Shown: positions 40,101-60,266 of the stretch, piece by piece | How positions within the stretch are numbered: position 1 is the stretch's first letter | How the letters are laid out: each line of letters starts with the position of its first letter | Source: Macrostomum lignano | Taxonomy: Eukaryota | Assembly (NCBI GenBank): GCA_002269645.1 | Contig: NIVC01000986.1 | Coordinates: forward strand, 310,001 to 374,000 | Length of the DNA stretch: 64,000 nt | Direction: 5' to 3' | Program-made: the position numbers and the translations under genes | Notes under the pieces: generated by a model | Told to the model about the DNA's origin: nothing | The model's input: only the letters and a program-made list of their open reading frames with translations | Databases searched by the model: none

Positions 40101-41457
40101 CGCAGTCAAAGGAGGCAGAGTATTTGCACTAATAAATAAATACGAAAGCGACTGTTTTCAAACAATTGTAGACGTTGTAAAATACCATTTAAAAATACCA
40201 ACAAGCGACCCATGCGAGGTTATATCAACTCATCTCAAAAGCGATATGGAAGAAAAAAAGAAAATCGCAATTAAACTAAAAAACCAATTGGGTACCGTAT
40301 CAGATTGTTTAATGAATTTTGATGGAGTCTCGTTGTATCCATCTGCCATGTCTGATAAGGATAGCGAATATCCAAGAGCAGAAACAGCCAGAGTGTTTGA
40401 TATAAGCGAGGAAAAGGATTTTTTGACACAATTTAATTCACAAACCTTTCGACCAAAAACAGCGGTTTTAAAGATTATGTATGAGAATCCCACTAGCGTT
40501 TTTCTTCAACATCTCCCATCGAAAGACAAAGAGAAAGTTTATAATCCGGAAACAAAAGCAAACGAAACAAAAACATTAAATAGGTTTAGAAATGGAAAGG
40601 TAATCGGCACTTTATGTTCCGTAGACATACAAGAAATTGTAAGAATGGGTGGAAAAATATTAAAGATATATAGTGGAATTGTATATGAAAAAAATTACGA
40701 TTTCTCTCCGTTTCAGAATTATATTACAAACCTTTTTGAAATGAGAAAAGTATTTAAAAAAGAAAATAACGAGGCAGGTTCTGAAGTAGTAAAAACATTG
40801 TTAAATTCCTTATATGGTAAAACGGTTCAAAGAGACATTACTTTCACAACGCATCTCTGGAATTTGAATACATTAAAAACAGAATACGATGACACAATCA
40901 AGTCATATGAGAAAATATGTGACGATTTATTTTATGTTGAAAAAAAGAAAGACACACAAGAATATGTAGATGACGACGATAGTCCTACAACAGGCCTTTG
41001 TCCGGCACAATTAGGCATATTTATCTTAGCTCATTCAAGAAGGATCATGAATAATTTTATCACCTCTATAGACGGTTCAAAGACTCCAGAAATTTATTAC
41101 GGTGATACGGATTCATTATATATACATAAAAAACATTGGGATACATTAAATAAAAACGGATATGTCGGAAATAATTTAAGTCAAGGAAAAAACTATTATG
41201 GAGAGGGTGGAATTATATTCGGATATTTTATTGCTCCTAAAATTAAATATTGTCTTTTATTGAAAGACGATTTTATTATGGAAGAGAAAAAAACATTTAA
41301 AGGATGTGCAAAGGATAAGATTAATTTTGCATCGTTTAAAACTTTATATGATGGACAGTCAATAAAAGTAAATAATAATGCTCCGTGGAAACGATCGTTT
41401 GAAGGTGGTATTGTAGCGTACTTTAATAACTTTCCCGAAATTTCTTCAGATTTCTAA
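34175..41457 (+). pseudogene. polB: pPolB of Maverick C (frameshift at about 34841, TAA at 36172, split by a transposon at 36190-40063)
   Basis: CYIPSDGNCF, YIFDFET, AHNSSRFDSY, VKGGRV, FDGVSLYPSAM, KTLLNSLYGK, YYGDTDSLY. Removing the insertion gives K*FSVHSHTNPYIRRF in frame. Confidence 0.93.
36190..40063. mobile_element. Non-autonomous CMC/EnSpm-type DNA transposon
   Basis: TIRs CCCAG(A/T)GGAAAAGG, 2-bp TSD CT (36188-36189 and 40064-40065), subterminal CAACGG/CCGTTG repeats, no transposase. Possible short exons on the minus strand at about 36800-37210. Confidence 0.9.
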
Positions 41458-42013
41458 AAGTCAAAAACTATTTCCAGAAACTTCTTTGAGTTAGCAGCTA
41501 ATCTATAACATACGCATATAAATAGTAAATAATTAATTATCACTTAAGTATTAATGTTCTAATTATATTTACGTAATGTATATAATTAAAGGGTTATTTC
41601 GCTTTGTTAAAATTAGCTAAATCTTTCTAGAAATTTCCGGAAGGCAATAACAAGGCTATAAATACACGGCGGCAGCAGTGAAACAAATCACTCTCTCGCT
41701 TTCCCCTTGTTTTCTCTTTGATCTAAGTTCCGTTGGTAAATAACTAAATGAACCACCGCCTTGCTCTTATTCAATAATCAATTAAAGAAAATTCTACAGT
41801 ATAACAATTCCTCAAAGCGGATCAACCATATCAAAAACGTATACGTCTTCGATAAACACATTTAAAAGAGAAAAACCAGATAAAAACGGAGTTATGAAAC
41901 CATTCTTTAAAAACTATTTTGATGACAAACCACAACACGAACATTCAATTGAATATTATAACAGCTTACTATATGACGTAGACTATAATTGTTTTGAGTT
42001 CGATATTGATGAA

Positions 42014-42376
42014 CTAGCACTTATCGATTAAAGCTCGCGACCCTACGGGGCGATAAAAAACCAAAGCATGTAATTGTTTAAGCATAATATCCATTTCAAT
42101 TTCGTATTTTATTGAGCACCAATTGTCCTCACAGTCGGCAGGGTAACTTAAACATTCTTTTACTTTTTTCCTAAGTACTTTTATTCTCCTAACAAGACGA
42201 TCGATTTCAATTTCAATTACTGTTTCAGCATAAGCAATTGCGCTTTTGATAAAACGCTTTCTTTTATCCAACTCGTATCGGATAGGAAACATATCATCCC
42301 CATAATCACTATAATATAATATATTAATATCATTCATTTCGCGCTCTTTTGTAACTAGGATCTTTAGTGTCTCCAT
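42014..42376 (-). CDS. Hypothetical protein
   Basis: ATG-started ORF in the gene-dense accessory block; no recognised motif. Confidence 0.55.
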   Translation of the reverse strand: METLKILVTKEREMNDINILYYSDYGDDMFPIRYELDKRKRFIKSAIAYAETVIEIEIDRLVRRIKVLRKKVKECLSYPADCEDNWCSIKYEIEMDIMLKQLHALVFYRPVGSRALIDKC

Positions 42377-42397
42377 TTTCTTATAAAAAATTTAAAC

Positions 42398-42727
42398 TTA
42401 TTCAGAGTCTTCCTCCCAAACGGAAGCTAACCTTACAGTCCTGTCACACTTTTTATTTTTTGTTTGTTTTAGTTTAAATTGCAACCCACTCTCCCGACTG
42501 TATTTCATAACAAACGTTTTAGGTTTATTAATAACTAAAACTGGAAAATTTTTAACATCATCCCCGCTTAGACATAGGACAGTATGCCCATCTAATTGTA
42601 AAAATATCGATTGAATTCCAATAAATTTAACCTGTCGCAAACATATAATATTATATTCTTTATTCTCCAACATATTGGGCGCGAGAAAATTAATCACATT
42701 AGAATCGGTTTTGAACCAGCGCTCCAT
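42398..42727 (-). CDS. Hypothetical protein
   Basis: ATG at 42727 preceded by the A-rich leader seen for other genes in this element. Confidence 0.5.
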   Translation of the reverse strand: MERWFKTDSNVINFLAPNMLENKEYNIICLRQVKFIGIQSIFLQLDGHTVLCLSGDDVKNFPVLVINKPKTFVMKYSRESGLQFKLKQTKNKKCDRTVRLASVWEEDSE

Positions 42728-42752
42728 TTTTAATCTAAAAAAATAACAAAAA

Positions 42753-43265
42753 ATGAAAGACATTTACGAATGTAATAAATGTAATGTGGTCATGCATAGA
42801 GGCCAAACAGCAAATGGAGATATATATCACATGTGTTATTCATGTTCTAAAATATATCAATTTGAAAAAACAAAAAAGATTGAAAACTCATATTACTATT
42901 TTAAAAACACAATTTTAAGAAATCTTACAAGGGACATTTCCCATCCAATTTTAATCCCCGGAAATAATGTTTATTTATATAACAACTTTTTCCATTTAAA
43001 TAAAGGAAAGGGATTAAGTTCGAAAGACTCTGAAAGGATTTTAATTTTAGTTGGATATTATTTCAATTTTCTTATACGAGAGAATACAAAGTTTATAAGG
43101 ATAGGCAACATACCTAACGAAAGGTTATTGAAAAAGTCATTGGAATTTTTATGTATTGATAAAAAATTTAAACCTAGGATTATAAGAGAGTTACCACTTT
43201 GGGAAGAATATATAACATATGCATTAAATAAATTAAACAACCTGAAGTTCTACAGTACTTCCTGA
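42753..43265 (+). CDS. Hypothetical protein with N-terminal zinc ribbon
   Basis: CNKC...CYSC. Confidence 0.55.
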   Translation: MKDIYECNKCNVVMHRGQTANGDIYHMCYSCSKIYQFEKTKKIENSYYYFKNTILRNLTRDISHPILIPGNNVYLYNNFFHLNKGKGLSSKDSERILILVGYYFNFLIRENTKFIRIGNIPNERLLKKSLEFLCIDKKFKPRIIRELPLWEEYITYALNKLNNLKFYSTS

Positions 43266-43739
43266 CCGCGGGCTTTGTACTCCCATACTCATAATTTCCG
43301 GTTTGTATTCAATAGTTTCTATAGGCGGAGCTTTGGGTTTGTCTAAACGTAATTCTTTCAACTCCATATCGGTAAAAGTTTCAACATCCAAAATCCTATT
43401 TCTATCTTTTAAATATTTTTCATATAATTCAACCGCCGTTGATAACTCATGAATCGTTATCTCTCCATCATCCAATATTTTTTGCACATATAAATATAAC
43501 TGGTTTTTATATTGTTTAGCAATGTCTCTTAACGATTTATATTTTTCCTTTCGTTTTTTAAGATATAATTTGATTGCCAAAAGTATTGATAAGTTTCTGA
43601 TTAATTCAAAACCTGATGTTGAACCAATTGAAATACTTAAAAATTGAGATAAATTAAGAGTTGGAACAGACTGTAAAATACCCAAAACGATTACACATAA
43701 CATCGATAAGCTTCCACAACCAATATTGAAAAAATCCAT
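43233..43739 (-). CDS. Hypothetical membrane protein
   Basis: Two N-terminal hydrophobic segments, then a charged domain. Confidence 0.55.
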   Translation of the reverse strand: MDFFNIGCGSLSMLCVIVLGILQSVPTLNLSQFLSISIGSTSGFELIRNLSILLAIKLYLKKRKEKYKSLRDIAKQYKNQLYLYVQKILDDGEITIHELSTAVELYEKYLKDRNRILDVETFTDMELKELRLDKPKAPPIETIEYKPEIMSMGVQSPRSGSTVELQVV

Positions 43740-43859
43740 ATTTCTGATATGGTTTGAAACCCTTCTTACTTTTTTAGTATATAAATCATAATCATAGTTA
43801 ATGCGATCAACATGTGACCCTTACGTTGGTTAAAATGGTCACGTTCCCTTTTATCTGCT

Positions 43860-44186
43860 TCAGACACCGACATTTTCGTCTATTTTTAATAGCACCAAAA
43901 TGAATTCCCCGCGCTCTTTGGGGATTTTTCCTGAGCTCAATAGGTATTGTATCGGACTTATTCTTTCTTTTTTCTCCCATTTAAATCCAATCTTCCAAAA
44001 CTCTTGAAGTATAATATGATTTTTTAATAATTTAATTAATTTTTGAAGCTTCTTATTATCCTGAACATTCACATTGCTAAATAAAAATTTGGTATGAGAT
44101 TTGAATGTTTTTATAATCGGTTCTTGTTTAGGAATTGGAATAATAACATTATTTTGCCGCATCGATGGAGTTCTACTAAAAGCCAT
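43860..44186 (-). CDS. Hypothetical basic protein
   Basis: ATG-started ORF co-directional with the structural operon. Confidence 0.5.
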   Translation of the reverse strand: MAFSRTPSMRQNNVIIPIPKQEPIIKTFKSHTKFLFSNVNVQDNKKLQKLIKLLKNHIILQEFWKIGFKWEKKERISPIQYLLSSGKIPKERGEFILVLLKIDENVGV

Positions 44187-44202
44187 TTTATATATAAATA
44201 TT

Positions 44203-46073
44203 TTATATTGCTACAGGAGGTTTTTCTAAATAAGCGGTAGAGGGAAAAACATAACCAAACGATGTGCTACCACAAACGGCTGCGCCACGAATAAAATGTG
44301 CAGCATCCGATCCTCCAGTTCGAGCACCAAAACCCATAAGAGTTCCACTTTTATCCAAAGTTCCCCAAGTGCCACTATCATATGTGAAAACGTTCTGCCC
44401 AATGAGGGTATAAGAATCTGCTGAAACATTGTATAAACTTAATTGATACCAAACCCTTTGATTAAGAATATTGATTTCAAACAGATGCCAATCACCATTA
44501 TCAATGTTGGCGTAGGCTACTGTTTGATCCGCGTCATTAAGAACATCTTTACGAACCGTAGATCTGTCTGATTTTTTATTACTCCAAACAACTCCAAACC
44601 TATCATGCCACTCACTAGCAAACACTATCAATCCAGCGTCTGTTGCTAAATCAGTCCCATTTTCCAATGTTGGTCGTTCGTGACAATATGCATAAAACCA
44701 AACGGCATCTGCACCACTTCCTGTAGCATTAGCAACTCGGAAAAAGAAAGACGCAGATATATTTTGAAAATGTGTGAAATTGAATTGTAAAGCACCACTT
44801 ACACCTGAGGTTTCACGAGTAATTCTAGCACCATTTTGATAATCAATATAAGAAGCGTCGCCAATTAAAGACCCAACTAGATATATATCTCCGGCGGTTG
44901 TTGGATTTTGATATCCACTCCAGTTACAAATTACTGGCTCGAATAATGCGGCATCAATGGCGGGAATATTATCCAATTTGTTTTTATCGCCGGCAGACAT
45001 TCTACCATTTGAAGTTGGTGTTGCTACCTGATCTACGTACGCTCGCGGGGTTGCAGAAAGTATTTGATCGGCCAATTAAGATCTTGAATTTCAACTCGGT
45101 GTTCAAATAATTGTATTAGGCGAACTTCGATAGGTTGCGTAACTGTCCCACCAGTTGGGAACAAAACGCTATAATTTCCAAAAATTAACCGTTAAATTAG
45201 TTAACGCAAATGAAGTTGCTTGAATTGGTGATCCCGACGTTCGTAATACCGTCCATGCATCGGTAGCAACATTTTTTGCGCGCACCGACCACCCTGAGGG
45301 TATTTCAATTGTTGCGCTGCCTGTAATTCTTAATTCATTTATTCTTCGATTATAACCTAAAAATTCAAATTGAATTTCCATATTGGTTGTGGTTCCGGTA
45401 TTTGGTGACCATTGTGTCGCAAGGCTTCCATCTCCAACTCGAAAAGCATCGTTGGTATTTTCGGATGCTGTAAGAACAACATCAGGATTTGAAGTATTTG
45501 ATGTAAGCGGCGTGGCAAAAATATCGGCGTCAGTTACATTAGCTCGAGCGTTGACTTGGCCGAGATTTACCGAGTCTGTGTCCTCTGTTCCAAATAATAA
45601 ATTTGTTAATTTAAAATTATTCATATTAATATTGCCAGTACGACTACCAACCTGATTATCGACATAGTTCTTATCAACTACCGAGTTATTCGTTGTAATT
45701 GCAACATTTATAATTCGATTGTTATCCATATCTAAGGTTCCGGTTGCGGTGGTTTGAACATAGCGTGAATCAGAATCAGTTCGAGAATAAGAATCAGTTA
45801 TATCTCTTTTTAAATTTAACCCAGTGTCAACTTCTGTTCTCGTATATGAATCACTAATATCTCTTTTAAGATTTAATGAAGTGTCGATTTCGGTTTTGGT
45901 ATAGGAATCTGCAACATTTCTTTTTAAATTTAGTTTAGTATCAATTTCAGTTTTTTATAACCTTCATCTTCATTAATATATCGGTTATCTCCGAATGTAA
46001 CACTTATTCCGCCAGTTGTACCACCACCAGTACTTGTTGTTCCATTCCATGAGAGTGTTCCAGAAAATATCAT
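44203..46073 (-). CDS. Fibre/spike-like adhesin of about 620 aa (three apparent frameshifts): 19-aa stalk repeats, discoidin (F5/8C)-like and L-type lectin domains
   Basis: ATG at 46073; YTKTEIDTxLNLKRxxxDS repeats; GNINMNNFKLTNL...DSVNLGQV; ASE..NDAFRVGDG..TQW; ATPTSNGRMSAGDKNKLDNI; GSGADAVWF...GFGARTGG. Frameshifts at about 45955, 45180 and 45075. Confidence 0.75.
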
Positions 46074-46083
46074 TTTTTACTGC

Positions 46084-46497
46084 CTATTTTATAGAGTCTA
46101 AAATCGCCTTAAAGTCTTCGGGTCTTTCCTTAGATTTGTTAATTTTATATAAAAAATATAACGCCGCCTGTCCGCAATAACTTTTGTCAAATGTTAGAAA
46201 CTGTTCGTGATGATCTCCACATAATCGGTTTTTAGTATGATTAAATTTGTCTTTTATTTCCTGTAACGGAGGAAGGGCATATGAATCAAAAAAATAAACA
46301 AGTTTGGGTTTTGAATAAACTGCTGACCAATGAACGCCATAACATGAACATCCATATTTTGGTAAGTCTTTGATCTCATCTCGCATAACACATCTTAATG
46401 GTTTTATCTTTAGTTGTCGCGCCCAATTTGTCAATTCAATATTGCTTGTTGTGTCAGTTCCATATCTTTGTTTGAAATCGCCCCAAGTTATTACCAT
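46084..46497 (-). CDS. Adenain-like cysteine protease, possibly with an internal deletion
   Basis: GVHWSA, YFFDSY, EQF...SYCGQ. The usual I/VNLD segment before HW appears missing. Confidence 0.85.
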   Translation of the reverse strand: MVITWGDFKQRYGTDTTSNIELTNWARQLKIKPLRCVMRDEIKDLPKYGCSCYGVHWSAVYSKPKLVYFFDSYALPPLQEIKDKFNHTKNRLCGDHHEQFLTFDKSYCGQAALYFLYKINKSKERPEDFKAILDSIK

Positions 46498-46682
46498 TTT
46501 ATGTTGCTGAAAAACTCTTGGTTTTGGTTAGTTTCGTAGGTGTGGGTTTTAACAACTCCTTTCGGATTTTTTCTGCTTGAAGTTGTTTCAATTTTGTTAG
46601 TTCGATTTCATAATTATCCTTTGCATTTTGAACTTTATCTGATAGTTTTTTTATACCATTATTATTACCCATTTTTACTATA

Positions 46683-47468
46683 TTAAACCTGTTTTATACG
46701 TAAAATTACCGTTATTGACTGTCCGCCAAAACTTATTAACCTATCGCTTTCGTCTACGATCCTAATATAAATTGATAGAACACTATATTGATTTAAAGGA
46801 TAATATATTGGGGTTTGGGTTGCAACAATCATTTTCTCTCCAATTGGAACAGCAAGAAAGGGAATTGAATAAATGATGCCACGTTGAACCAAAACTCCGT
46901 TATCATCTGTTATATAACCGCCGTTTGATATGTCGGTTGTTATATTAATTGTATTGACTCCACCCTCAATGTTTCCCACTGTATCGCCGGTGCTTGATGT
47001 GGTAACTATTCGGGAATTAAATCCTAGTATGGTTCTGAGTGAATTTGCTATTGTGAAATCAACCTGATATCCAGATCCTAGTGATAGCGTGAATCTTCCC
47101 GATGGTAAATCAACCCCTATAACAATCGCGCCCGCTACCCAATCACCATTAGCTGTTAATTCTCCTTCTATATAAGCATTCAAATCGGTATAGCTATAAG
47201 CCCCTGGATTAACGCTAAATGTTGTCCAATTGGCTCCTGAATCTTTAGAATATCTAAATTGATTATTTGTTGCATTAATTAATTGAGGCATGTTAAAAAC
47301 TGAAAATAGTATCAAACCTATTTGATAACTTAGGCTTTGATCGAGTTGTAACGGATCGCGCAATTGAATCCGTTGCTCGCTGCTTGTCATTATAAACTGT
47401 AAGGTTGTACTAAATTTTGAATTAGTTCGATCTACCAATTGTTTTATAGTGTCTAAATTTGTTGCCAT
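46683..47468 (-). CDS. Minor capsid protein
   Basis: INATNNQFRYSKDSGANW...GAYSYTDLN...INITTDIS...IYSIP...IRIVDESDRLISF. Confidence 0.85.
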   Translation of the reverse strand: MATNLDTIKQLVDRTNSKFSTTLQFIMTSSEQRIQLRDPLQLDQSLSYQIGLILFSVFNMPQLINATNNQFRYSKDSGANWTTFSVNPGAYSYTDLNAYIEGELTANGDWVAGAIVIGVDLPSGRFTLSLGSGYQVDFTIANSLRTILGFNSRIVTTSSTGDTVGNIEGGVNTINITTDISNGGYITDDNGVLVQRGIIYSIPFLAVPIGEKMIVATQTPIYYPLNQYSVLSIYIRIVDESDRLISFGGQSITVILRIKQV

Positions 47469-47512
47469 TTTTATAGTGGGAATTGTGCTTTAATCAGCCC
47501 ATGGGCTGCAGA

Positions 47513-48285
47513 CTAAGACTGATCCTCGTCCTCGTTATCTTCATTTATCAGATTTTTAAAGATTCGATTTTTCCTTTCAAGTCTTGGGTTGATATATATG
47601 TGTTTGTATTGACTATCATCCCAAATTTTTTTACTCATACTTTTAAATGGTTTTGTATCCAACCCAGGATTAAATATAGCGTGTATATTTTGTAGATCGT
47701 AGTTATCCAAATCAAACATTACACAACAACTTGCATTCTTTTTTATAATCGGTTCTAATTCTCTAAAGGACTGTGTTAGATAAACAGCTCCAATTCCATC
47801 ACCTCTGCCACTAACAAAATTTCCTTTTGCAATTCTTGATCGCCATCGTTAATACAATCGTCAAAAATATTTAGTGTTTTATCATGTTTTGGAATTTGAT
47901 CGTAGGATAATCGGGTTGATACTCTAACATTTGGGGCTCGGTTGTTAGTGATAGTGTTTTCTGGATCTTCTGCCGTTGTTTTACATAAATCCTCAATGTC
48001 TGATAGAGTAAATCGCGGTTCGTCAACATCCTCATATTTCTCATAAGCCCTTAACATTCTAAACAAGATATCTTTTTTTAATTTGTTTTTTAATCCATGT
48101 TTAAGAAATTCATAATATTTTATTCTAGGTTTGTTAGTATATATTAATAAATTATTATAGTCTAACATTCCGTCGGTTGTTAACAGGTCATAAACAAAGT
48201 GTGTTTTTCCTTTACCTGACCCTTCAATTACTAAACAAAGAAAAGGATCGTTTGGAAATATAATATTGTGTTTTGCTTTTACCAT
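47513..48285 (-). pseudogene. Packaging ATPase (frameshift at about 47820; Walker A reads IEGSGKGKT)
   Basis: Walker B LNIFDD; the shifted frame gives FVSGRG...VYLTQSF...KKNASCCVMF and joins ORF 47513-47719. Confidence 0.88.
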
Positions 48286-48304
48286 TTTTAAGGAAATAAT
48301 TTAT

Positions 48305-49786
48305 CTAATTTTTATCTAAGGGCACATCCCAAACGATAGTGCCGTCTGCTTTAGCAATTGACATATATTCCTCTAGAAACAATACGTGGGCGTCTATTGC
48401 CTGATTGCTGGTTTTATTAATCTCTAACATATAATTAAGTCCAACATTGGATACGTTTTCTTTCTGTGCCATTAGATCATAAACAACCACTGGGTGAATG
48501 TTTAGAAACTCTGTGGTTGTGTACTGAGGGACAGCATACGCTTCATTTTTGACATAATCCTGATAATATTTTATAAAATCATTGACATCATTATTTGCTA
48601 TGTTTAGATTAAGGGGGTCTTTAACCGGATAATATTTGTCATCAACCTGCAGGCGGATATTCTGAACATTAAACTCGTTAATAGCCGAAACCGCGTTGTC
48701 GGTTGCGGTGGCTGCTTGTGCTGCTATGTCACCCAATTGAAGCCAATATAAATCCCCATTTGCTCTTTTACTCCTTCTGTTTGTTATCTTAAACCAAACA
48801 AAAATATATCTCACCCGACGTTTTGATGTAATTATCTGCCACTGGAACGAATCCTGGTTATTATTAATGGTTCGCATAAAGTGTCGACGATTCAAATAAA
48901 ATATTTCTTGATCAACCATTAACTGATTATCGACATGTTTTAAAAGCGGCGCCGTTAGCTCGAGTTTTGGCACGACTAATTGAATTGATGCTATGCGAAC
49001 TGCTATATCGGTTGAAATCGAGGTTCCATAAAGTATCCTAGGCTGATATCCACCAGAAATTTGCAACTGTATCCCAAATTTTAATCCTTTCCATACCCGA
49101 TTTGGTGAGAAGAACCCAAATAGTGGGAAGATTGAAAAGTCCTGCTCATATGCGGTTGCTGTGGTTAAAACCGCGACTGGGAATTTATTCTGACGATCTA
49201 TAAAACCTGTATTAATATATTTTGTGTTAGTCATGGTGGTTACAACTGGAACTATATTGGTATTAAGATAAGCAATAAGAGCTGCGGTATCTGCGCCAGC
49301 TGCATTTTGTACGTTAGGGAAAACTACTGCTTGACCATTACCCTTATCAGGCATCCATCCAACACTATCACCAACTTGTTTTGATAAATAAGTATAATTT
49401 AAATGTTTCAAAACTCCATTAATCTCTGCTGGGTTTGATGCTGTCTCAACCTCGGCTCCATTAACTGTTAGTTGGGCTTGGGAAAAACATTTATAAAACC
49501 AATCATTTTCTATAATAATACCAGAACGATCTGCGATATCGCCGGCTGCAAGAGCGGTTCCATCATTTCTGGTATACAACCATCTAACGCGGAAAAATGC
49601 GTTTTTCATATCCAAAACGCTGTCGGCCGCGCCAATGTCAAAAGTTACCGTTCCGGTAGTAAAGTTATTTGAATTATCGCTTGTTGTTAGAGTATAATTT
49701 AAATCTCTTGCCCTGACCTCATTAATATACTGACGATGCTTTTTGAAATGAAATTTATCGCTCCATATGGTTTTTGTTTCAGCCAT
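48305..49786 (-). CDS. Major capsid protein
   Basis: 493 aa; FSQAQLTVNGAEVE, LVVPKLEL, FQWQI...RYIFVWF, RLQVDDKYYP, VVYDL; located next to the ATPase and minor capsid. Confidence 0.88.
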   Translation of the reverse strand: MAETKTIWSDKFHFKKHRQYINEVRARDLNYTLTTSDNSNNFTTGTVTFDIGAADSVLDMKNAFFRVRWLYTRNDGTALAAGDIADRSGIIIENDWFYKCFSQAQLTVNGAEVETASNPAEINGVLKHLNYTYLSKQVGDSVGWMPDKGNGQAVVFPNVQNAAGADTAALIAYLNTNIVPVVTTMTNTKYINTGFIDRQNKFPVAVLTTATAYEQDFSIFPLFGFFSPNRVWKGLKFGIQLQISGGYQPRILYGTSISTDIAVRIASIQLVVPKLELTAPLLKHVDNQLMVDQEIFYLNRRHFMRTINNNQDSFQWQIITSKRRVRYIFVWFKITNRRSKRANGDLYWLQLGDIAAQAATATDNAVSAINEFNVQNIRLQVDDKYYPVKDPLNLNIANNDVNDFIKYYQDYVKNEAYAVPQYTTTEFLNIHPVVVYDLMAQKENVSNVGLNYMLEINKTSNQAIDAHVLFLEEYMSIAKADGTIVWDVPLDKN

Positions 49787-49820
49787 TTTTTTAAGTTAAA
49801 AAAGTTTTTTATGTTAAAAA

Positions 49821-50444
49821 ATGAGTCAATTTATGGATGTTGATGGAGAGTTAGCGATTTATAAAGAGAAGCAAAGATATTCTGATTTTGTTAGAAACTT
49901 ACAAAAAAGAAAGTTAGGAATACAATTAGCTGGCGAAAAATTTGCTGCTCCTTTTGTTAATCCTATAATGGGGAAAATTAGTGAACTAGAAAAAACAGAT
50001 AAAGACCTTCTTGAAAAAATTGCTAAGAATACGGAGCCAAAAGAGGATGAAATTTTGGATGAGCCGCCTGCTTATGATGTTGATCAAGCGCTATTGAGAG
50101 TTGCAGAGATTAGACGTGCAGAGCGGGGTGGAGTTGATGAATATCCGAGAGCTGCACCACAAAGTATTGCTGTGGTGGATTTAGGTAATGATAATTATCG
50201 AATTGGTGGATTTGATAAAAATCGGAATGAGCTATATAGAGAATTGGGTGGAGCATATAATATTATTATGAACCCTAGGGTAAGATTTAACCCTGAATTA
50301 TATACTAGGGATGAATTAGTAAGTGCTAAAAATTTTTATGATGAATTAGGAGTAAGAGCTGCTAAAAATACCAGCTTGTATAAAAGGATTGTTGATTCTA
50401 TAAATAACAAACCGGCTGTTGGTGAAGGATTTAAAACTCCGTGA
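49821..50444 (+). CDS. Hypothetical conserved Maverick protein
   Basis: Intact 207-aa ORF divergent from the MCP; C-terminal GEGF motif. Confidence 0.6.
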   Translation: MSQFMDVDGELAIYKEKQRYSDFVRNLQKRKLGIQLAGEKFAAPFVNPIMGKISELEKTDKDLLEKIAKNTEPKEDEILDEPPAYDVDQALLRVAEIRRAERGGVDEYPRAAPQSIAVVDLGNDNYRIGGFDKNRNELYRELGGAYNIIMNPRVRFNPELYTRDELVSAKNFYDELGVRAAKNTSLYKRIVDSINNKPAVGEGFKTP

Positions 50445-50512
50445 AAACTTGTTTTAGCTGCTGCGAAAGCTGCTGGACATACGGGAATTTAGTTAAATTT
50501 ATTTTTTATAAA

Positions 50513-51085
50513 ATGGAAACTAAAAAGATTTGTACTAAGTGTAAAGAAGAAAAACCAATGACTAAAGAGTTTTTTTGTTGGAGAAATGATTCAAAAAAAA
50601 TTAGAAATGATTGTCGATTGTGTCATAATACTTCGTCTACGATGTGGATGAAAAACAATAAAGATAAATGGAAAGAATATAGAAAAAATAAATATCACAC
50701 TGATGAAAATTACAAAAATATTACTTTAATTAGAAATAGAATAAATAGGTCATTATCAACTTTTAATGACAAGGACTATATCTCATATCTTGGTTGTACA
50801 AAAGAATTCTTTTTTGATTGGCTAAATTTTACAAGAAATTATTATGTGTCAAAAGATTATGATGGTGCTTTACATATTGATCATTTAATTCCAGCTTCTT
50901 CATTTAGTTACAAAGACGAACATCAGATGAAAAAGTCTGAACATTGGACAAATAAAAGATACTTAACTAGTGTAGATAATTACTATAAAAAAGTTAAACA
51001 ACCAACCATCGAAGAGTTTGCAAAACAATTAGTGTTAACTTGTATTTTTAAGGCTATTAAAAATGAGCAATCAATTAGTATTTGA
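50513..51085 (+). CDS. HNH-type (viral homing-like) endonuclease with N-terminal zinc ribbon
   Basis: CTKC...CRLC, YLGC, HIDHLIP...HWTN...DN. ATG at 50513; the end overlaps the PLA2 start. Confidence 0.82.
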   Translation: METKKICTKCKEEKPMTKEFFCWRNDSKKIRNDCRLCHNTSSTMWMKNNKDKWKEYRKNKYHTDENYKNITLIRNRINRSLSTFNDKDYISYLGCTKEFFFDWLNFTRNYYVSKDYDGALHIDHLIPASSFSYKDEHQMKKSEHWTNKRYLTSVDNYYKKVKQPTIEEFAKQLVLTCIFKAIKNEQSISI

Positions 51086-54000
51086 AGGAGGATTGTTGGA
51101 TGTTCAAAAAGGATTAACAAGCTTACCACCAATCTTTACTACTGGGAAGCATACAAATGAACTACATATTCCAGGCTATTCATTTACAGGTTAACCCGTG
51201 GCCTGAGTGGTAGAAGCAAAGCTACTGCTAGTCACTATTTGTGGCGACATCTTCAAATTGCGTGAAACCCGTCATACAGCTTCAAGTACCACTTCAACTG
51301 AGAAATCTTTTGAAGGCCCTACTCTCCTTGCATGGATAAATCATGGATGAAGCATCCATGATGCCATGTATGGATCATACCTGAACATGTATGGAGCCAT
51401 ACCTGATCATACATGGTTCCACGTAAACTTCATCCATGGTTACTTTCCATCCATGTACATTGATGTATGATTTTAAATATAATTTTCCTTACTACACTAC
51501 TGTTAGTAGAACGCAATGTTTGCGTAGGTTCATTTTAAAGCTGAAATTTTCTAAACAAATTCGGCAGCATCTTTAGTGCTGCTGAGAAATATGTTTCCAT
51601 TCCCTTATAAATCACTTTCAAAACAAAAAAGTATCAGAACAAATACTTATGCAATTAAATGTAGAAGTAATTGAAAACTCGTATGATGACCATTTCGAGA
51701 CTTATATTATTAATGATAATTAGGCATAATTCATTTCAAAGTACTGTAAGAAAAAATAAGACAGCTCAGTCTCAGAGAGCTTTAAAATACAGAATGGACA
51801 GAATTTGACGCATTTCAAGGTACTGTAAGAAAAAATAAGACAGCTCAGAGAGCTTTAAAATACAGAATAGACAGAATTTGACGCATTTCAAGGTACTGTA
51901 AGAAAAAATAAAACAGCTCAGAGAGCTTTAAAATACAGAATAGACAGAATTTGACGCATTTCAAGGTACTGTAAGAAAAAATAAAACAGCTCAGAGAGCT
52001 TTAAAATACAGAATAGACAGAATTTGACGCATTTCAAGGTACTGTAAGAAAAAATAAAACAGCTCAGAGAGCTTTAAAATACAGAATAGACAGAATTTGA
52101 CGCATTTCAAGGTACTGTAAGAAAAATAAAACAGCTCAGAGAGCTTTAAGATACAGAATAGACAGAATTTGACGCATTTCAAGGTACTGTAAGAAAAAAT
52201 AAAACAGCTCAGAGAGCTTTAAGATACAGAATAGACAGAATTTGACGCATTTCAAGGTACTGTAAGAAAAAATAAAACAGTAAATTTTACTGAACAGTCA
52301 ATAAATAGAATTAGCCGAATTCGGTACGCATTAAGGGCAAGGGCCGACTAATCCTTTACGAAACGAAGTTAATGCTGCATTAGTCAATTATTTGCGCACA
52401 GAAACTTGGAGATTTTGAATATGGAGAGATCGGACAAAGAGAGGTAACGGTGGGAGTCTGAGAGGGAGGAAGTTGGGCATCTGGAAAGTTATTCTGATTC
52501 CCTGATGGTTTTATCTTGGTCATGGAGCATAATTTTATTTTCTGCCAGACTTTGCAGCATTAATAATAAAATAATCGGATCTAAGGTACGGACACATACT
52601 CGTACCTTTTTAATCATGTTCAAACTCTTTGAACAATGGCACAGCGCAATAACAGTCTTTGCTGAACGATTCTACTGGAACAGCGATGCAGGGTCGATCG
52701 ACCTCTGAAAAATTAACTATACGTTCGCGTCTGGCCGATCTGGGCGCATTAGACAGGGATATCAATACAAAATTGAATGTCGAAGACTTTTTGAACATGG
52801 ATTCCAGCAATGCTTTCCAATTAAGTAAATCGATGGGGAAAGTTGCTGCTGGTACTCGTAAAACAAAATCAAACAGCGAACCAATGGGATCCAAAATTTG
52901 CACTCGAATAGTATTAGGCTCGAGGAACTCTGCAATAGTGCAGATTTCGCCGGACTTCAATTGGCAAAGATGGTTAGAATTTTTCGACGCACAAGCTGAG
53001 CTTGTCGAGAAAAAATGTCCATTAAAATAAGCAAGTGAGTTTCGAAGAATACCATGTGGCCTGGATGGCTCTAAAGATATAGAGTTAACTGCATCCACTA
53101 CAATAGAGTCCTTAACACAAGAAAAGTAGTGATGTAGCAACTTTTGAAACAAAAACTTGCGAACAAGCTGTGGGCCAAATGACACAGTTCCGCATAAGAA
53201 CTTTTTGAACATGCCAATGGAGCTCTCAAATGCGAACATAGAATAATTAAATACAGGTCCGTACAATTCGTACTGTTCAGCCATATGCAAAAGCAGGTGG
53301 AAATTAAGGCGGAGTACTTTCGGTCCGAATATTTGCTGAGCATTGGAGATAAAAGCTTTGCATAGCTTTTCGATATCAGTCTTATTTGATTGGGGGCTAT
53401 ACAACATGTGATAAATAAGAACTAAATTAGTTAACAGCAGTTTCAATGGAAAATGCGAAATTCTCTGCAAAAACGTAGGAAGAAGAAAGTATAGCGCAAA
53501 GTTTTTAAAATGCTTTGCTTTCCAATCTGAAAAGCCTTTAAAATTTGTGTTGATTGTGATGCTAGAAGGAGTTATAGATTGACGAATACAATTAGATATG
53601 AAATCCATGCAATTAGCTGAGCAAAAATACAACTCGCGCCTGTTTGCAGGTAATGACAGCTCTTCTAGTAGATACTTGGTGTGGCCTTCGAAAAAGCAGT
53701 GTAAACTGTCAATAGGATTGCAGCTGGGAAACGGAACATAGTCTAACAAGCAACTGCGCATCTTTACGCCAAAAACAGGCCGATTTCGAATTTGTGCGAG
53801 CCGACAGTGTTCAAGATGGGAAGATGGGTTTCTCAAAGGAAACAAGTAGCCTTCACCATAGCGGAAGATCCAGTTTTTACCTTTCTCGGATACTTTAAAG
53901 CTCTCACCTGGGTGCAAGCACCTAGGACAGCTAAACGCACCATTGTACTGGTGAATGCAGAAGAGCTTAGCAAGAGCGGGCAAGTCACAAACAAAGAGTG

Positions 54001-57000
54001 TGTAATGGACATGAACGGTGTATTCCGAGAATATAAACTGTTTTGGCAAATTGTTCATAATTTCAGACAGAAAAGACTGGAAATGCGGGACTGCCTTCGA
54101 TGAAACAAGAGCAATTAGAATTAAATTTGCAAAGCGTTGACGGATGTAAACAGGAAGGTTTAGAAGTTGAGCCTGAAATGGCCAAAAGCTACTCTGAACA
54201 GATTCAAAAAAATTGGCGCCATCAGCTGAGATTAGAAGATGCAAGTGAAGCGACTTGCCAGAAGATAGGCTTAAGCCTTGTTCTTTAACTATTTTGGAAT
54301 TCAAAACGTCTGTGTTTTTATCCTTTTGCAATTCTTGCTCATACTGCAGAATAGTTGAAGTGTGGCTGCTTAAGATAGTCCGCAGCTGTGGAACAATATT
54401 GAGCTGTGTCACAGCAACCTTTGACTTTGGGGAATGAACCTGACACTGGCTTTTGCATTCTGGGCAAAAGCCAAATTCAGACACGTCACTATCATCAAGA
54501 GGGCAAGTATCTTGAATCAATGATTTGAGCAACTTGACGCTATTTGGAAGAGCTAGAGAATCTCTACTAAAAATAGAAAGTAGCTTCAGGAGTCTATCAA
54601 GAGCAGCCTCTGAAACTCCGGAAGTAATTGCCCACTGAAAAATCAGAGCCGCCTGCACACTGGGATCTGAGATGGAAGCCAAATTCGCTAAGCTATCTGA
54701 ACTCTCCTCAAGCACAGGCACAGCATTGTTTTCACCAATAAAAGTTTCCACAGCGTCAGGACAGCTGTGCGAGTGCGTTACACCGGCTTCGCTTGAAATT
54801 GAACTCCTATTACTTGTAGAAAAACTATTTGAGGGAGAAGAAATCGCCTGACAAGAGTAGGCTGAGTAATTAGTAGAAAGAGAGTGCTCAGATTCTGATT
54901 TACTAGACATAAAAATAGCAATTCAAATATTCAAAAGTTACTAGAATTTTTTCCGCAATTCACGGTCCCATTCGCCTTGAGCGGGAAATGGAATCCCCTG
55001 ACTCGGGTCCAGAAGCAGCAGTTGAAGTTCGCTTTCTCGCCCGTGTCTCCTCCCTGGCCAGCTGATTGAGATGGTCTCGTACAGACTTCCAGATTTCGTG
55101 GAAGTCGTAGCCAGATGTTCGATAGCACAATTGAAGCAAACCTGAAAATTCACGAGTATAGTAAAATATTTTTACAATAGACATTGTGTACTGTGTTTAT
55201 AGTAGAAATAGGCTAAATTTAAAAGGAAGTTGATTTATGATGCTAATCATTAAATAGGTCAATGGGATGTATTGAACTTTAGAACTATTTTTCCTCAATT
55301 TCTTTTATCTCAGACCTAAATGTGTTTTTTTAGAAAATATCCCAAGTATTGGATTCAGATCATTTAGCATTAATTAGCCTAAATTGCTTTATAATAAAAA
55401 AATTGCACAAAACTGTGAAAAAATTATATATATATATTTACGTTGAAACTCTGTCACATGCTCAGATGGAGCAGGCCTTCGGGAACTGCGAGCACCACAG
55501 GATGAATCGATTATATGCTCAAGCAAGTAGCCTTCGCCAAATCGCAGCTTGATATACCTTCGGAGGAACACCTTAGGATCGTTGCAAAGAATTGAAGACA
55601 GCTCAGCTAGGGAACCATCAATGCACCTAAATTCCTAAAAAATGTTATTATATAGTAGAACTTTTATACTACAGACGTGATGCTGCTGATGCTAAGAAAA
55701 AACTGACATACCTCATTTTGGTATTCTTTAATTGTTAGCATTCCACCAAAGTTGTCATCCTTTTTTAAAAGTCGGCATATCCTTGCAGCAAGACGCTTCT
55801 CAAGAGAAAGCAACTCGGATTGAATGAACAGTTTTAGATCTAGAGTAAGATATATGCTCATATATAAAAATATGGTGATTTTGATTTTTAATAATGTGAT
55901 TGTATCATATTAAAAAAATAAAATTATACCTTTCATTGTTGCATCCGATTCACTGTTTACTATCTGTACCCCTCGGAGGGGTTGCACTTCTTGAATTGCA
56001 CCTAGTGATAAAAAAGGCTTATTGCTACAAAAATATTGACTCATTTGGTATTTGGTTTTCAATTAGGTGTAATAGAATATACAAACTTGATTCCAAGAGG
56101 CCTGTGGCACGAGCTTGCTCATTTTCAACCAAAGATGCCTCTCTCTCAAATGCAGAAATGGCTTTTTCTAAAAAATAATAATTAATCAAATAATACAACA
56201 AAAAAAACAAATTGCAAACAATTAATAGTTCATATATATTGCAGTTTTACCCATTGATTGAGTAGCTGGTATCGCCAAATTTGGTTCGCCACTTTCACTA
56301 TCCACTTCATAAAGCTCGTCAAGTAGTCCATGCTGATGACAACTAGAACTTGAAGCAACCTGCTTTGAACTAGATGACCTTATTGTCCTTACATTTGCAA
56401 TGCCAGCTTGGGGATCTTTCATTGCAAAAAGCTCAATAGCTTGGCTAATCAATGAATCAGTATTTTCAGCCTCACTAACCAAGTTGGAAAGTTGGTTCAT
56501 AGTTGAAGCCATTTGCCTTTCACTACCTTTTGCCACAAGTGTAGCAGAAAATAGTTTGCCATACATGCGTAAAAAGACTTTAGTCCCCTAAAATATAATT
56601 TAATAAAGTAATATTACATTTGTAGTTGGAATAATTTGTTTTAGAAACCATGTACTCAATAACAAAATATTATGCATATAAATCCAACTTAAAATCTTAC
56701 TTGTGCAAGTTCCAACTTTTCATCATTAGTTATTGTACTTGGCCAATAGGGAGACCCAAATGCAATGGTCACATATTGCTCATCATGGCCAACATTGTGA
56801 AGAATAAAGCAGAAAAACAATGCTGAATTGTCATTTCCAAATTTAGAAGTACTTTTTGTCTGCTTTCGAAGAGGCCTAGAATTAGATGCACTTAATCCAA
56901 TATCATCCATAACAATTTGTTCTGAAAAAGTTTCACAAGGAGATAAGGTTTGAAGAATCAATCAAGAGGCCAATGACAAACCAATTAGAATTGTATATAA

Positions 57001-59377
57001 AAAAAATTTAATGTAGGGACCCTAGGCCCCTATGATTTTAAATAAAAATTATAATATAAGGCCTAGGCCCTATATATAGGCCTATAATTATAAAGTTGTG
57101 CCATTGTGGATTTTCTGATACAAAGTAGACAATATTAGGCCTAATTGGGCCTAGTCTAGTCTAGTTTTGATTATAGACTGTATATTAGATACAAAGGACA
57201 TGAAAGGTCTCGAAATTAAGTACCAACCAATTACCATAATATACTATTATTTTTTATTATTTTGAAACTGTCAGCCTACCATGTGATTTTTATCATTAGG
57301 CTATGGCCTAGGTCTAGGATGCCACTTTAGACTAGGCCTTTGGCTTTGGTTAGGCCAACCTATCATTATAAAAATGCAGCAAAATATCATTCAAAAATAT
57401 ACATCTAACCCCTATAGGTTATCTTTGCATCCCAAATATAATATATAATAGGGTTTCTATTTTCTAATATATCTACAAATACAATTTTCACTGAAGGAGT
57501 GAAGATCAAAATTAGCATGTCAAAAAACCTTACAAGCCACCGAATTTTAAAACTAGCTACCAAAAGTGGAACTGGAAGTATATAGCTAAGAAAAAACATA
57601 AACATAAACATAGCACATAGTGACACATAATGAAATGATGACAACATGCAAGAGTGACAGAGTCCTCTTAGAAAGGAAAAATAGGCCTAGTAATTTATGT
57701 TTATGGGAAGTTAAGTCCGTAATTAACTAAACCGAAACAAAATGGCCAACAAAATTGCTGGTAATATATTCAAAGCAATTTGTAGGTGAAGATTTTAACA
57801 AATTTATTAAACTATTTTTTGTATTTACAATTTCGCTTTTATTAAATATATTTAAAACTTTATTAGATATACATAAAATAGCCTGAAATTTTTTATAAGC
57901 TTAGTTATTTATTTTCCCGTATGAACTCCCTGACATGGATGATTTTACCATGGAAAGTTTTAAAAATCCATGCATGAAAATACCATGAACATGCATGATT
58001 TATCAATGGATCATGGATCATAGATGATTTATCCATGATAAGAGAGTAGGGGGAACAGAGGTAACTCCTCTTCCCAAAGGTAACAAGCTTGAAGACACGG
58101 TGGCAATGCGCAGCCAAGCTCCTAAGTATTTAATATAAGGAGAAGGTTCAGAGAGCAGACGGAGGTGGGCGGTAATCATCGCCGCTTAAGGTGTGCTCCA
58201 GCCTATTTTGAAAGATTTAGGGCAAACTGCCGGGACTCGGCTGGATTTGAGATTAAATCCTGATAATACTCCAAAAGCTGATTCGATTCCCATAAATGGT
58301 ATTGATTGGTTAGCATATTATCATGACTTAGCATACAGAGATGCTGACAAGAACTCACCCGAGGAAGCATTAAGATTAAAACATGAAGCCGATAGAAAAA
58401 TGATTCAAGGATTAGATGATTTACAAGGATTATCGGTAAGCCAAAGATTAACTCGGTGGATGGTTAAAAGGATTCTGCAGTCTGAAGTTAAATTTGGTTT
58501 AGGAATTAATTATAACCGACATGGAAATAATTGTGTTGAATGTTTGCTGTTAAGTGGTAGTGGGTTAAGTTCTGATGAGGCAAAGGTTCTTCACAAAGAA
58601 TACCGAAAACCTAAATTTTATAGAAAAATCATGAACTTCAAAAAGAATGAAATTTGGTATGCTGATTTAATGTCAATGCCAAACGAAAATGGATATAAAT
58701 ATATCTTAACCATACTGGATGGTTTTACTCGATACGCGTGGGCTGTTCCTTTAAAATCCAAAAAAGGAGAAGAAGTTGCTGCTGCTTTTAGAAGCCTTGG
58801 AGAAAAAAGTAAAAGATTGTGTGTTGATGAAGGAAAAGAATTTTACAATCCTCATATGTATAAATTGTATCATTTTGAAAAAGGACAAGAAAGGAAAAAG
58901 GACGCGAATGGGGAGTATATTAATAAAATTCATTCTATTTATGGCGAAAGCAAAAACGCACTGATTGAAAGATTTAATCGAACTTTAGGTAAGAAATTAT
59001 GGTTTCAGTTTAGTCTTAATGGTAACCAAAAGTGGGTAAAAATATTGCCAGACGTCGTGAAAGATTATAATAACTCATATCATTCAGCTATAAAGATGAC
59101 TCCTCAACAAGCTTATAACAATCCTGAAAAAGTTAAAGTTACCTTCGGGGACTTTGAAAAAAATAAAAAGAAACCTTTTAAGGTTGGTGATTCCGTTTAT
59201 ATATATAAATGGAAAGATAAGTTTGAAAAGGGAAGAAAAGGATATTGGAAGATAAGTGAGAAATTTACTATCAGTAAGGTTTTAAATACAAATCCTACAA
59301 CCTATATCATTGCTGATAAGGATGGTGAAGAAATATTGGGTTCTTTTTATGAGAATCAGATAATGTCTGCGAACTAA
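51063..59377 (+). CDS. int: PLA2-integrase fusion; exon 1 51063-51191, exon 2 58230-59377 (one base apparently missing at 58230-58231)
   Basis: Exon 1 ends ELHIPGYSFTG; exon 2 reads (P)GTRLDLRL...YYHDLAY...ADRKM...KFGLGI, then WYADL, VDEGKEF, IERFNRTL. Spliced product about 425 aa. Confidence 0.88.
51732..52279. repeat. 73-bp tandem array (7 units plus a partial)
   Basis: CATTTCAAGGTACTGTAAGAAAAAATAAAACAGCTC... at 51732, 51811, 51884, 51957, 52030, 52103, 52175 and 52248. Confidence 0.95.
52610..54910 (-). CDS. CMC/EnSpm-family transposase, 766 aa, intact
   Basis: ISADG...SFWP...NLP...R, VCDLPA, NGAFSCPRC, IDSLHCFFEG, WKAKHF, NFHLLLH...YGP...SMFAFES. Confidence 0.92.
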   Translation of the reverse strand: MSSKSESEHSLSTNYSAYSCQAISSPSNSFSTSNRSSISSEAGVTHSHSCPDAVETFIGENNAVPVLEESSDSLANLASISDPSVQAALIFQWAITSGVSEAALDRLLKLLSIFSRDSLALPNSVKLLKSLIQDTCPLDDSDVSEFGFCPECKSQCQVHSPKSKVAVTQLNIVPQLRTILSSHTSTILQYEQELQKDKNTDVLNSKIVKEQGLSLSSGKSLHLHLLISADGANFFESVQSSFWPFQAQLLNLPVYIRQRFANLILIALVSSKAVPHFQSFLSEIMNNLPKQFIFSEYTVHVHYTLFVCDLPALAKLFCIHQYNGAFSCPRCLHPGESFKVSEKGKNWIFRYGEGYLFPLRNPSSHLEHCRLAQIRNRPVFGVKMRSCLLDYVPFPSCNPIDSLHCFFEGHTKYLLEELSLPANRRELYFCSANCMDFISNCIRQSITPSSITINTNFKGFSDWKAKHFKNFALYFLLPTFLQRISHFPLKLLLTNLVLIYHMLYSPQSNKTDIEKLCKAFISNAQQIFGPKVLRLNFHLLLHMAEQYELYGPVFNYSMFAFESSIGMFKKFLCGTVSFGPQLVRKFLFQKLLHHYFSCVKDSIVVDAVNSISLEPSRPHGILRNSLAYFNGHFFSTSSACASKNSNHLCQLKSGEICTIAEFLEPNTIRVQILDPIGSLFDFVLRVPAATFPIDLLNWKALLESMFKKSSTFNFVLISLSNAPRSARRERIVNFSEVDRPCIAVPVESFSKDCYCAVPLFKEFEHD
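54960..56580 (-). CDS. Multi-exon accessory gene of the EnSpm element, BEN-like C-terminus (boundaries approximate)
   Basis: Short GT-AG introns, e.g. 35 nt at 55635-55669, join ITSV to EFRCIDGSL...FLRRYIKLRF...; last exon EIWKSVRDHLNQLAREE. Confidence 0.42.
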
Positions 59378-59643
59378 GTTCGAACAGTTACTTAAGGCAA
59401 CATGGTAGTAAATTTTTTATAACAAACAAAAACAATATTATTACTATTATTGTTACTAATATTATTATTGACATTTGTTCAACAGTAATTAGACTTAAAT
59501 TTTCATTAAGTTCATTAATCGGCACATTTCCGATGTAGGAGTAGTTTACCTTCATTTTTTTAAATATTTTTTTAAATATTTAAATATTTTTAAAAATTTT
59601 TCAAAATAAATGTAGTTTCTGTTATAGAATAATAGTTCATTTT

Positions 59644-59862
59644 TTACATACTCTCCGAATCACTAGTTTCATAAGAACTATTTGTTGAGTTGGAATCATC
59701 TGAACGAACCTCCCAATCGTCTGAATTTAAATAATCTCCAAGTTGAAATATTAACTCGCCCTCTTGTTCTAAATCATACAACCCATCCAACTCTAACGGA
59801 TAAAGTTTTAGTTCGTGCTTATCGTCATATTTTAAATAAACTTCATCAATTATTCGATTCAA
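59644..59862 (-). CDS. Small acidic hypothetical protein
   Basis: 72-aa ORF next to the right TIR. Confidence 0.35.
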   Translation of the reverse strand: MNRIIDEVYLKYDDKHELKLYPLELDGLYDLEQEGELIFQLGDYLNSDDWEVRSDDSNSTNSSYETSDSESM

Positions 59863-59945
59863 AATATGCTGTTTTATTATCTCTGAATTTTTAGCAACAG
59901 TCTCAAAAGTATCACAAACTAACAGAAAAGGTGTAAACTCGGTTC

Positions 59946-60266
59946 ATTTTTAGTAACAGAAAAAGACCCTTTGCGCCTGCGGCGCGGCAGCGGGTTATAG
60001 AGTGTTGGAAGTGTTAGAAGAATTGGGTGCGGTACAAAATTGCCAGCAAACTAAGAGGAGTATTCTCAGAATTCAATGAGAATTAATCGTTGTAAGTGTG
60101 AAATGGGGAGATTGACCGAAATGAAGCGAGGATGAGCGAAGCGAGTTGAGCGAAGTGAAGACGAGCGATAATGAAGGGAAAACAAGTCATTTCACACTGA
60201 TAAAGGGTTAAATCTCTTTGAATTATGAGAACGGTTTGCTGGCAATTTTGTACCGTAAATACTACT
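59946..60266. repeat. Right TIR of Maverick C
   Basis: Ends AAATACTACT, followed by the TSD. Confidence 0.95.

Follow-up and report, generated by a model that had tools for sequence, protein, structure and literature searches.

The nuclease slot and the PLA2-integrase gene

The window analysed here is a 64,000-nucleotide (nt) stretch of the Macrostomum lignano genome (assembly GCA_002269645.1, contig NIVC01000986.1, positions 310,001 to 374,000), and all positions below are window coordinates. It contains a Polinton/Maverick element in which the gene of a free-standing HNH endonuclease adjoins a gene combining a parvovirus-like PLA2 with an integrase (PLA2-integrase). The PLA2-integrase gene is interrupted by a predicted group I intron. 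A preliminary description had proposed that the nuclease cuts intron-less alleles and so mobilises the neighbouring intron between co-resident Polintons. Further copies of the element were searched for in the 764 Mb of the M. lignano genome, and the family of the window element is called family 1. The features of the window copy, including its open reading frames (ORFs), are:

50513..51085, + strand: free-standing HNH (beta-beta-alpha-metal) endonuclease gene, with an N-terminal CxxC..CxxC module, D123-H124, N147 and N156
51063..51191, + strand: PLA2-integrase exon 1, ending on the first Gly of the G-P-G motif; single-frame read-through in intron-less copies
51192..51316, + strand: 5' part of the group I intron (type A), with P1 including U.G, P2, P2.1, the 5' strands of P3/P4 and the start of the P5 extension
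51317..58051, - strand: EnSpm/CACTA-like transposon within the intron, with terminal inverted repeats, a 2-nt GG target duplication and DUF1258, DUF4218 and Transposase_21 matches
58054..58229, + strand: 3' part of the group I intron, with P4/P6, P7, P8 and P9; terminal G at 58229
58230..59377, + strand: PLA2-integrase exon 2, the rest of the parvovirus-like PLA2 and the rve integrase (PF00665, E 7.7e-8; PF08398 weak, E 0.057)
49821..50444, + strand: upstream neighbour of the nuclease slot, a 207-amino-acid (aa) ORF of fixed position, without a Pfam match
32346..60264, no strand assigned: Polinton/Maverick element, family 1, with 319-nt terminal inverted repeats at 32346-32664 and 59946-60264, arms 99% complementary

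The HNH ORF encodes 190 aa without interruption and overlaps the PLA2-integrase gene, whose ATG lies at 51063, by 23 nt. Exon 1 closes with GGT at 51191, 106 nt beyond the HNH stop. An intact gene with a zinc ribbon and a HIDH..N..N motif, ending at 51085 and 106 nt from the 5' splice site, was what the preliminary description had reported, and both statements held.

The motif residues of the protein are C7/C10/C34/C37, H121-I-D123-H124, N147 and D155-N156. Among 86 aligned HNH sequences, H124 and N147 were invariant, and C34, C37, D123 and N156 were at least 90% conserved. The AlphaFold model (pLDDT 94) has a beta-beta-alpha core formed by strands 120-124 and 148-152 and helix 153-159. All elements that define an HNH protein were present: the Asp-His pair, the structural Asn and a second metal-binding Asn/His on the helix. 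Relatives of the protein numbered 4464 representatives at E ≤ 0.001, and PHROG 1035 ('endonuclease VII') matched residues 3-162 with E 8.6e-10. The protein lacks the DHDH/R motif and the cysteines around the active site, so this label does not amount to membership. Assignment to the DHHRN group (Endo VII / F-CphI) was ruled out, since the motif reads HIDHLIP and the cysteine pairs are confined to residues 7-37. In the VIA comparison, residues 1-43 resembled the Hpy99I module (Z 6.2, root-mean-square deviation 1.8). A Pfam search with the protein gave no match, and a word-index search gave one homolog. The best clusters in the Atlas search were unnamed viral proteins; the nearest named one, PF01844 at 0.89, serves as a lead only. 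Judged by these sequence features, the 190-aa ORF is a real member of a nuclease family.

The full HNH ORF was found in 69 of 96 family-1 copies, and 68 had the DH..N..DN spacing; for comparison, exon 2 was stop-free in 101 of 131. The ratio of nonsynonymous to synonymous polymorphism (pN/pS) in family 1 was 0.40 for the nuclease domain of HNH, 0.67 for its N-terminal module and 0.10 for PLA2-integrase. By these measures, HNH is maintained about as well as exon 2, under weaker purifying selection than PLA2-integrase. N-terminal modules are swapped among the HNH alleles. Two intron-less copies (L202, L203) carry an extra 167-aa ORF upstream of a divergent HNH allele; its C-terminus resembles that of the upstream gene.

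The window Polinton itself is defective, although its HNH ORF is intact. The PLA2-integrase frame is broken at the start of exon 2 (~58230). This break was considered as a sign of another splice site and ruled out, the junction being in frame in 99 of 105 type A copies. The pPolB gene is broken as well: it lies in pieces ~4 kb apart (34990-41457), and inverted repeats within its region (38302-38620) suggest another insertion. The transposon in the intron is ~6.7 kb long and has a 766-aa transposase ORF (52610-54910), subterminal repeats and a 73-nt tandem array (51732-52285). Its insertion point is the P5 extension of the intron, and it was not seen at the intron site in the other family-1 copies compared. 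Pfam matches to pPolB and rve integrase fall inside the window Polinton, and its capsid, ATPase and protease ORFs, without library matches, were named from gene order and cross-family tblastn. An ORF flanking the element gave a weak match to the rhodopsin family of seven-transmembrane receptors (E 5e-5, below gathering).

Slot nucleases and introns in two Polinton families

Family-1 copies were collected by four independent queries (HNH region, exon 2, alternative slot gene and PLA2 protein). The resulting counts are lower bounds that include probable haplotype duplicates, and 150 of 761 candidates were scored in the PLA2-protein query. The 138 places comprised HNH with a type A intron (78, window included), HNH with a type B intron (15), a PD-(D/E)xK nuclease with type A (30) or type B (7), and HNH without an intron (3). 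The junction was unreadable in three others, all with PD-(D/E)xK, and the slot in two. Three further copies with HNH and a type A intron lie beyond this census. The slot is bordered by the stop of the upstream gene and the PLA2 start. It holds HNH in 96 copies and an Eco47II-like PD-(D/E)xK nuclease in 40, two unrelated nucleases that exchange there as alleles. An empty slot was never seen in any readable family-1 copy, and no relative lacking both nuclease and intron occurred among the 138 places. The intron was present at 132 of 135 readable junctions and is thus nearly fixed. A junction-pattern search recovered the same three intron-less copies, which belong to two lineages. Their codon at the splice position is GGC in one, as in the intron-less alleles of the sister family described below, and GGT in two.

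This sister Polinton family in the same genome was found by following loose ends in sequencing-run contigs. Its PLA2-integrase is the first gene past the terminal repeat and is 54-61% identical to that of family 1; gene order differs between the families, and DNA identity at exon 1 is ~70%. In both families PLA2 is fused in frame to the rve integrase, and intron-less copies have open frames of 431-488 aa. Because the two domains share one frame across the intron, expression of the integrase should depend on splicing.

Sixteen of 20 listed intron-less sister-family copies were fetched, along with 24 intron-bearing ones (13, plus 11 fetched from 14 places). All 24 (L205-L225, L228, L229, L231) have a related intron at the same PLA2 codon, with a core ~70% identical to that of family 1. 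This intron encloses a PD-(D/E)xK gene, placed in the P2.1 loop and reading through into the intron core, whose product is 63-69% identical to the free-standing PD-(D/E)xK protein of family 1. No upstream nuclease was found in the 16 intron-less copies, and tblastn with both slot nucleases against a separate set of 24 sister-family stretches, none of them a whole element, gave no match. The end of exon 1 tracks the intron: it reads ACT GGC in 16 of 16 intron-less copies and GCA GGT in 22 of 22 readable intron-bearing ones, a pattern that either co-conversion or selection for P1 pairing would produce. The sister-family intron is polymorphic, which makes it a candidate for an actively homing intron, and its nuclease a candidate for a new PD-(D/E)xK family of homing endonucleases.

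The predicted Eco47II-like PD-(D/E)xK identity of this nuclease is based on its motif and on Pfam RE_Eco47II (PF09553), which matched all 10 aligned members, with a best E of 4e-7 and, for L064, a score below gathering. Intron read-through tails were recognised in six of nine database homologs. In the PD-(D/E)xK tree, the free-standing proteins of family 1 group together in a single clade among others that have intron tails, and with midpoint rooting the tree suggests that exit of the gene from the intron is favoured over entry. No remnants of intron P2.1 were found flanking the free-standing nuclease genes.

The intron and intron-encoded HNH relatives

The family-1 intron was predicted to be of group I from its profile matches and fold, and in this sense it is a group I intron. 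In the window it spans 51192-58229. Here Rfam gave nothing at gathering level for the intron, with the 3' half alone scoring 21 bits, because the intron is split by the EnSpm-like element. Uninterrupted family-1 introns matched RF00028 (gathering 50) with 61.3 (L012) and 60.9 bits (L006), a sister-family intron (L209) with 88.9 bits, and an intron-less locus (L029) not at all. Elsewhere in family 1 the intron is contiguous, ~300-330 nt long and free of ORFs. The preliminary description of an intron without an internal ORF therefore applies to these short introns, but not to that of the window, with its transposase ORF, nor to the sister family, with its nuclease ORF. Folding of the alignment recovered P1, P2, P4, P6, P7 and P9, with compensatory changes in P2 and P9, and the P1 helix (CAGGU/GCCUG) has the U.G at the 5' splice site.

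The last base of the intron is G in the window copy (58227-58229) and in every readable sister-family copy (20 of 20). Among 99 in-register type A copies, 25 have G and 74 have A before the Pro codon (e.g. L006:2579-2581), the guanosine-binding pair in P7 being unchanged. A terminal A is known from a Coxiella group I intron.

The type B intron (23 copies; L024/L044, L037, L065, L140 and others) uses the 5' site of type A and has P2 and the P5 extension in common with it, whereas the catalytic core differs; one such copy (L140) gave no RF00028 match. Both strands of its P1 are changed (CGGGU/GCCCG). The codons that its guide fits are those for Pro-Gly, 6 nt downstream, and in the copies shown the 3' end has those codons and two extra bases. 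One type B intron (L179) contains an 835-nt insertion with short inverted ends, in which a nuclease ORF was not found. Palindromic insertions of ~30 nt with related motifs recur where HNH and PLA2 overlap, ahead of the slot and within loops of the intron (e.g. L019, L040, L059, L089, L209). Assembled contigs from 4 of 23 listed sequencing runs (4 studies, guessed to be RNA) covered HNH, the intron and the exons without an exon 1-exon 2 joint; such contigs drop rare variants and may be DNA, so they are neutral on splicing.

Relatives of HNH occur inside related introns elsewhere. The fifth-best relative (P0006; E 1.8e-21, 38% identity, cluster of 7) has a C-terminal tail that is translated intron core, as revealed by tblastn against the 5' part of the window intron (E 1.5e-9) and the intact L012 intron (E 1e-15). 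On the metagenome contig L357, a PLA2 exon ending in YTG is followed by a group I intron whose guide sequence is the same (RF00028, 101 bits), located at the same PLA2 G|PGT site, and by exon 2 from PGTRLD onwards. An HNH-family ORF with one in-frame stop lies inside this intron (E 2e-13, 26% identity over 191 aa). On L353, a family member lies inside a group I intron of a giant-virus-type major capsid protein (MCP) gene, and this intron is absent from three related contigs. In all, this MCP gene contains several group I introns, of which one encloses an HNH gene and another a GIY-YIG-like ORF; they are largely absent from L352, L354 and L355. A further contig (L356) carries part of an RNA polymerase gene, interrupted by two related introns. 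A tighter DNA pattern led to four giant-virus-type MCP loci, and one metagenome scan to two contigs, including L357. Looser DNA patterns mostly gave chance matches, with no HNH or PLA2 match among them, and IMG/VR searches for loci with P0006, alignment A5 or the PLA2 domain found nothing.

Proposed collaborative homing and its alternatives

We favour, with a probability of about 0.58, the reading that HNH is a homing endonuclease of the free-standing kind, targets the PLA2 junction where the intron is missing, is shielded by the intron and serves as one of two interchangeable partners. Relatives of both slot occupants are encoded by introns at this same PLA2 site, an indication that the two nucleases share the junction as a target. 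We infer the following scheme. When Polinton copies meet in one nucleus, HNH would nick or cut PLA2-integrase alleles that lack the intron, at the G|PG junction or close to it; the intron, by interrupting the cut site, would shield its own element. Repair from the intron-bearing copy would then spread the intron, and the nuclease too if conversion covers the ~106 nt of exon 1. The partnership would be defined by the site and not by a fixed pair, with two unrelated nucleases per slot and two intron types per site, and the HNH lineage also has members that live inside this group of introns. Since hardly any family-1 junction lacks the intron, the nuclease today would mainly drive turnover among the alleles of the slot and attack what intron-less alleles are left, the sister family's included. 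Overall, HNH probably helps the intron to spread.

Nucleotide diversity bears on the proposed target. The most variable 10-codon window of PLA2-integrase (234-237 codons) falls on the insertion site, with a nucleotide diversity (pi) of 0.274 (permutation p 0.002, all intron types) or 0.229 (p 0.045) with type A copies only. This peak is suggestive only, because diversity rises to an equal height in the middle of the upstream gene (0.248).

That second peak is one of several findings that weigh against the favoured reading, as is the amino-acid diversity maximum of PLA2-integrase, which lies away from the junction. Structural comparisons of the HNH model placed HNH-type nucleases at the top, which speaks for the favoured reading, but the matches were weak: Cas9 HNH domains ranked first in Foldseek (E ≥ 0.046, the best being 0.046), and VIA gave Z values of about 4-6 (besides Hpy99I, Cap5 Z 5.2, IscB 4.5, Cas9 HNH 4.1, PacI 3.8). 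A recognisable intron tail was present in 2 of 151 representative HNH proteins (P0006, P0021) and missing from the closest homologs (P0002, P0003), and the L357 and L353 proteins fall into a clade of the HNH tree more distant than P0006. The remaining points concern linkage, analysed in 80 non-redundant copies out of 114 having all segments; distance correlations were calculated among 48 copies with HNH and a type A intron and are descriptive, as pairs are not independent. The slot nuclease was independent of intron type (Fisher p=0.51, 80 copies), and for intron presence p was 1.0, with few intron-less copies. The distance correlation between slot and intron (rho 0.26) was lower than that between upstream gene and intron (0.42). 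Co-inheritance of nuclease and intron, a feature of a collaborative homing pair, was thus not observed in family 1.

The preliminary description had looked to co-occurrence of HNH and intron among Polinton relatives for support, and had regarded HNH present equally in intron-less relatives as evidence to the contrary. Both were found in part. Ninety-three HNH copies have the intron, but 37 intron-bearing copies have PD-(D/E)xK in place of HNH, and all three intron-less copies keep HNH, with a full ORF in two. For such copies, self-protection would need sequence differences at the target. HNH is therefore neither required by nor restricted to intron-bearing copies. Intron-less HNH carriers, the other nuclease in the slot and the independence of slot and intron together mean that a strict two-partner unit of HNH and intron is not supported. 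What has gained independent backing from the earlier proposal is the homing-endonuclease reading, through the intron-encoded relatives of both slot nucleases (P0006, L357, L353, sister family), but not an exclusive pair.

HNH might instead be engaged in intronless homing at another target. As a selfish gene it would compete with PD-(D/E)xK and with other HNH alleles to occupy the slot, and its cut would fall in flanking sequence such as the variable middle part of the upstream gene. The intron would be a bystander, spread by an intron-encoded nuclease that it has since lost. The slot is the least linked segment (rho 0.17-0.39 among the 48 copies), diversity peaks in the upstream gene, HNH occurs in intron-less copies, and the P2.1 loop of family 1 is minimal exactly where its relatives carry ORFs, as expected after ORF loss; turnover of homing endonuclease genes (HEGs) has also been proposed for phage loci by Barth et al. 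(PMC10055350). We nevertheless consider this account unlikely, as both slot nucleases have relatives inside introns at the same PLA2 site. Another possibility is that the nuclease is kept as a weapon: its carrier would gain when intron-less Polintons that compete with it in the cell, or a large DNA virus infecting the same cell, are cut, and little gene conversion would take place. Such interference was proposed for the intron nucleases of giant viruses (PMC5871332) and is reported to have been shown for a phage (PMC11620839), and it would fit a family-1 slot that is never empty and under purifying selection despite a near-fixed intron. Exon ends, however, co-vary with the intron and the segments are strongly mosaic, which needs recombination repair; we regard a weapon, a role that is compatible with collaborative homing, as distinctly improbable. 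Hardly credible, in our judgement, is a domesticated accessory nuclease for genome processing, packaging or host DNA degradation, unlinked to the intron. Every readable family-1 copy does have a nuclease gene in the slot, and an HNH gene beside the packaging ATPase was suggested as a packaging aid in one polinton-like virus (PLV; PMC12220804). Against such a role, an unrelated fold can replace HNH, N-terminal modules are swapped among alleles, no match was found in the stretches compared from 24 sister-family loci, none a whole element, and the relatives are intron-encoded.

Combining the preferred homing reading with the sister family gives a broader picture, which we offer tentatively and at slightly less than even odds. 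One codon of PLA2-integrase in the Polintons of one genome would host a homing ecosystem, composed of a giant-virus-related group I intron, two alternating free-standing nucleases and, in a co-resident family, one of these nucleases in intron-encoded form. Collaborative homing would then operate in a eukaryotic virus within an animal nucleus. Both ends of the transition from free-standing to intron-encoded (or the reverse) would be found next to each other, and in most family-1 introns the terminal base used in splicing would be A. To our knowledge, group I introns are essentially absent from the record of animal nuclear genomes. Collaborative homing is the proposed route to mobile group I introns, and the intermediates and end states known of it usually come from different organisms. 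With these states together in one genome and in >130 copies, direction and mechanism become testable with short natural DNA fragments. The locus may show how introns gain or lose mobility genes. It also offers two small uncharacterised, putatively site-specific nucleases that come in natural allelic series, and a ribozyme in which omega-A and omega-G occur as a natural polymorphism.

No published report of the PLA2 intron or its nucleases was found in open-access main text; supplementary tables S11-S12 of PMC12220804 could bear on novelty. The available passages of the adintovirus and coral polintovirus papers held no relevant intron passage. An HNH inserted in pPolB has been reported (PMC10748475), and where PLV papers bring up collaborative homing in the passages available, they do so by analogy and for helicase or replicase genes only (PMC11296320; 10.64898/2026.10.13.758929). 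Protist PLVs are described as having short group I introns of 309-376 bp, free of ORFs, close to the MCP gene, and HNH and GIY-YIG genes are noted in PLVs as well (PMC12220804). In that account, the introns are reported for protists only, without a link between nuclease and intron and with the host gene unannotated.

Collaborative homing has been described in phages (PMC6083498, PMC10055350, PMC2988022), and the closest parallel is F-CphI with the psbA group I intron of cyanophage S-PM2 (PMC6083498; reviewed in PMC2988022). There, too, a free-standing beta-beta-alpha-metal nuclease gene adjoins a gene with an ORF-less group I intron. F-CphI, as described there, has the DHDH/R motif and cysteine pairs around the active site, whereas the predicted HNH nuclease here is without them. 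The present system further differs in residing in integrated eukaryotic Polintons, with two unrelated nucleases alternating and two intron types at one site. The ICP1 terminase intron and its T5orf172 HEG (PMC10055350) resemble it in having a nuclease beside the intron and turnover of nuclease genes at one locus; in M. lignano, by contrast, the PD-(D/E)xK family occurs inside and outside the intron, in one host genome and at the same insertion site. The group I introns of giant viruses such as Bodo saltans virus, with HNH and GIY-YIG genes (PMC5871332), are a further parallel: a related core with the same P5 extension is found in giant-virus-type MCP and RNA polymerase genes (L353, L356), and one of these introns encloses a member of the HNH family. 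The host gene here is instead a Polinton PLA2-integrase, and the family-1 nuclease is free-standing.

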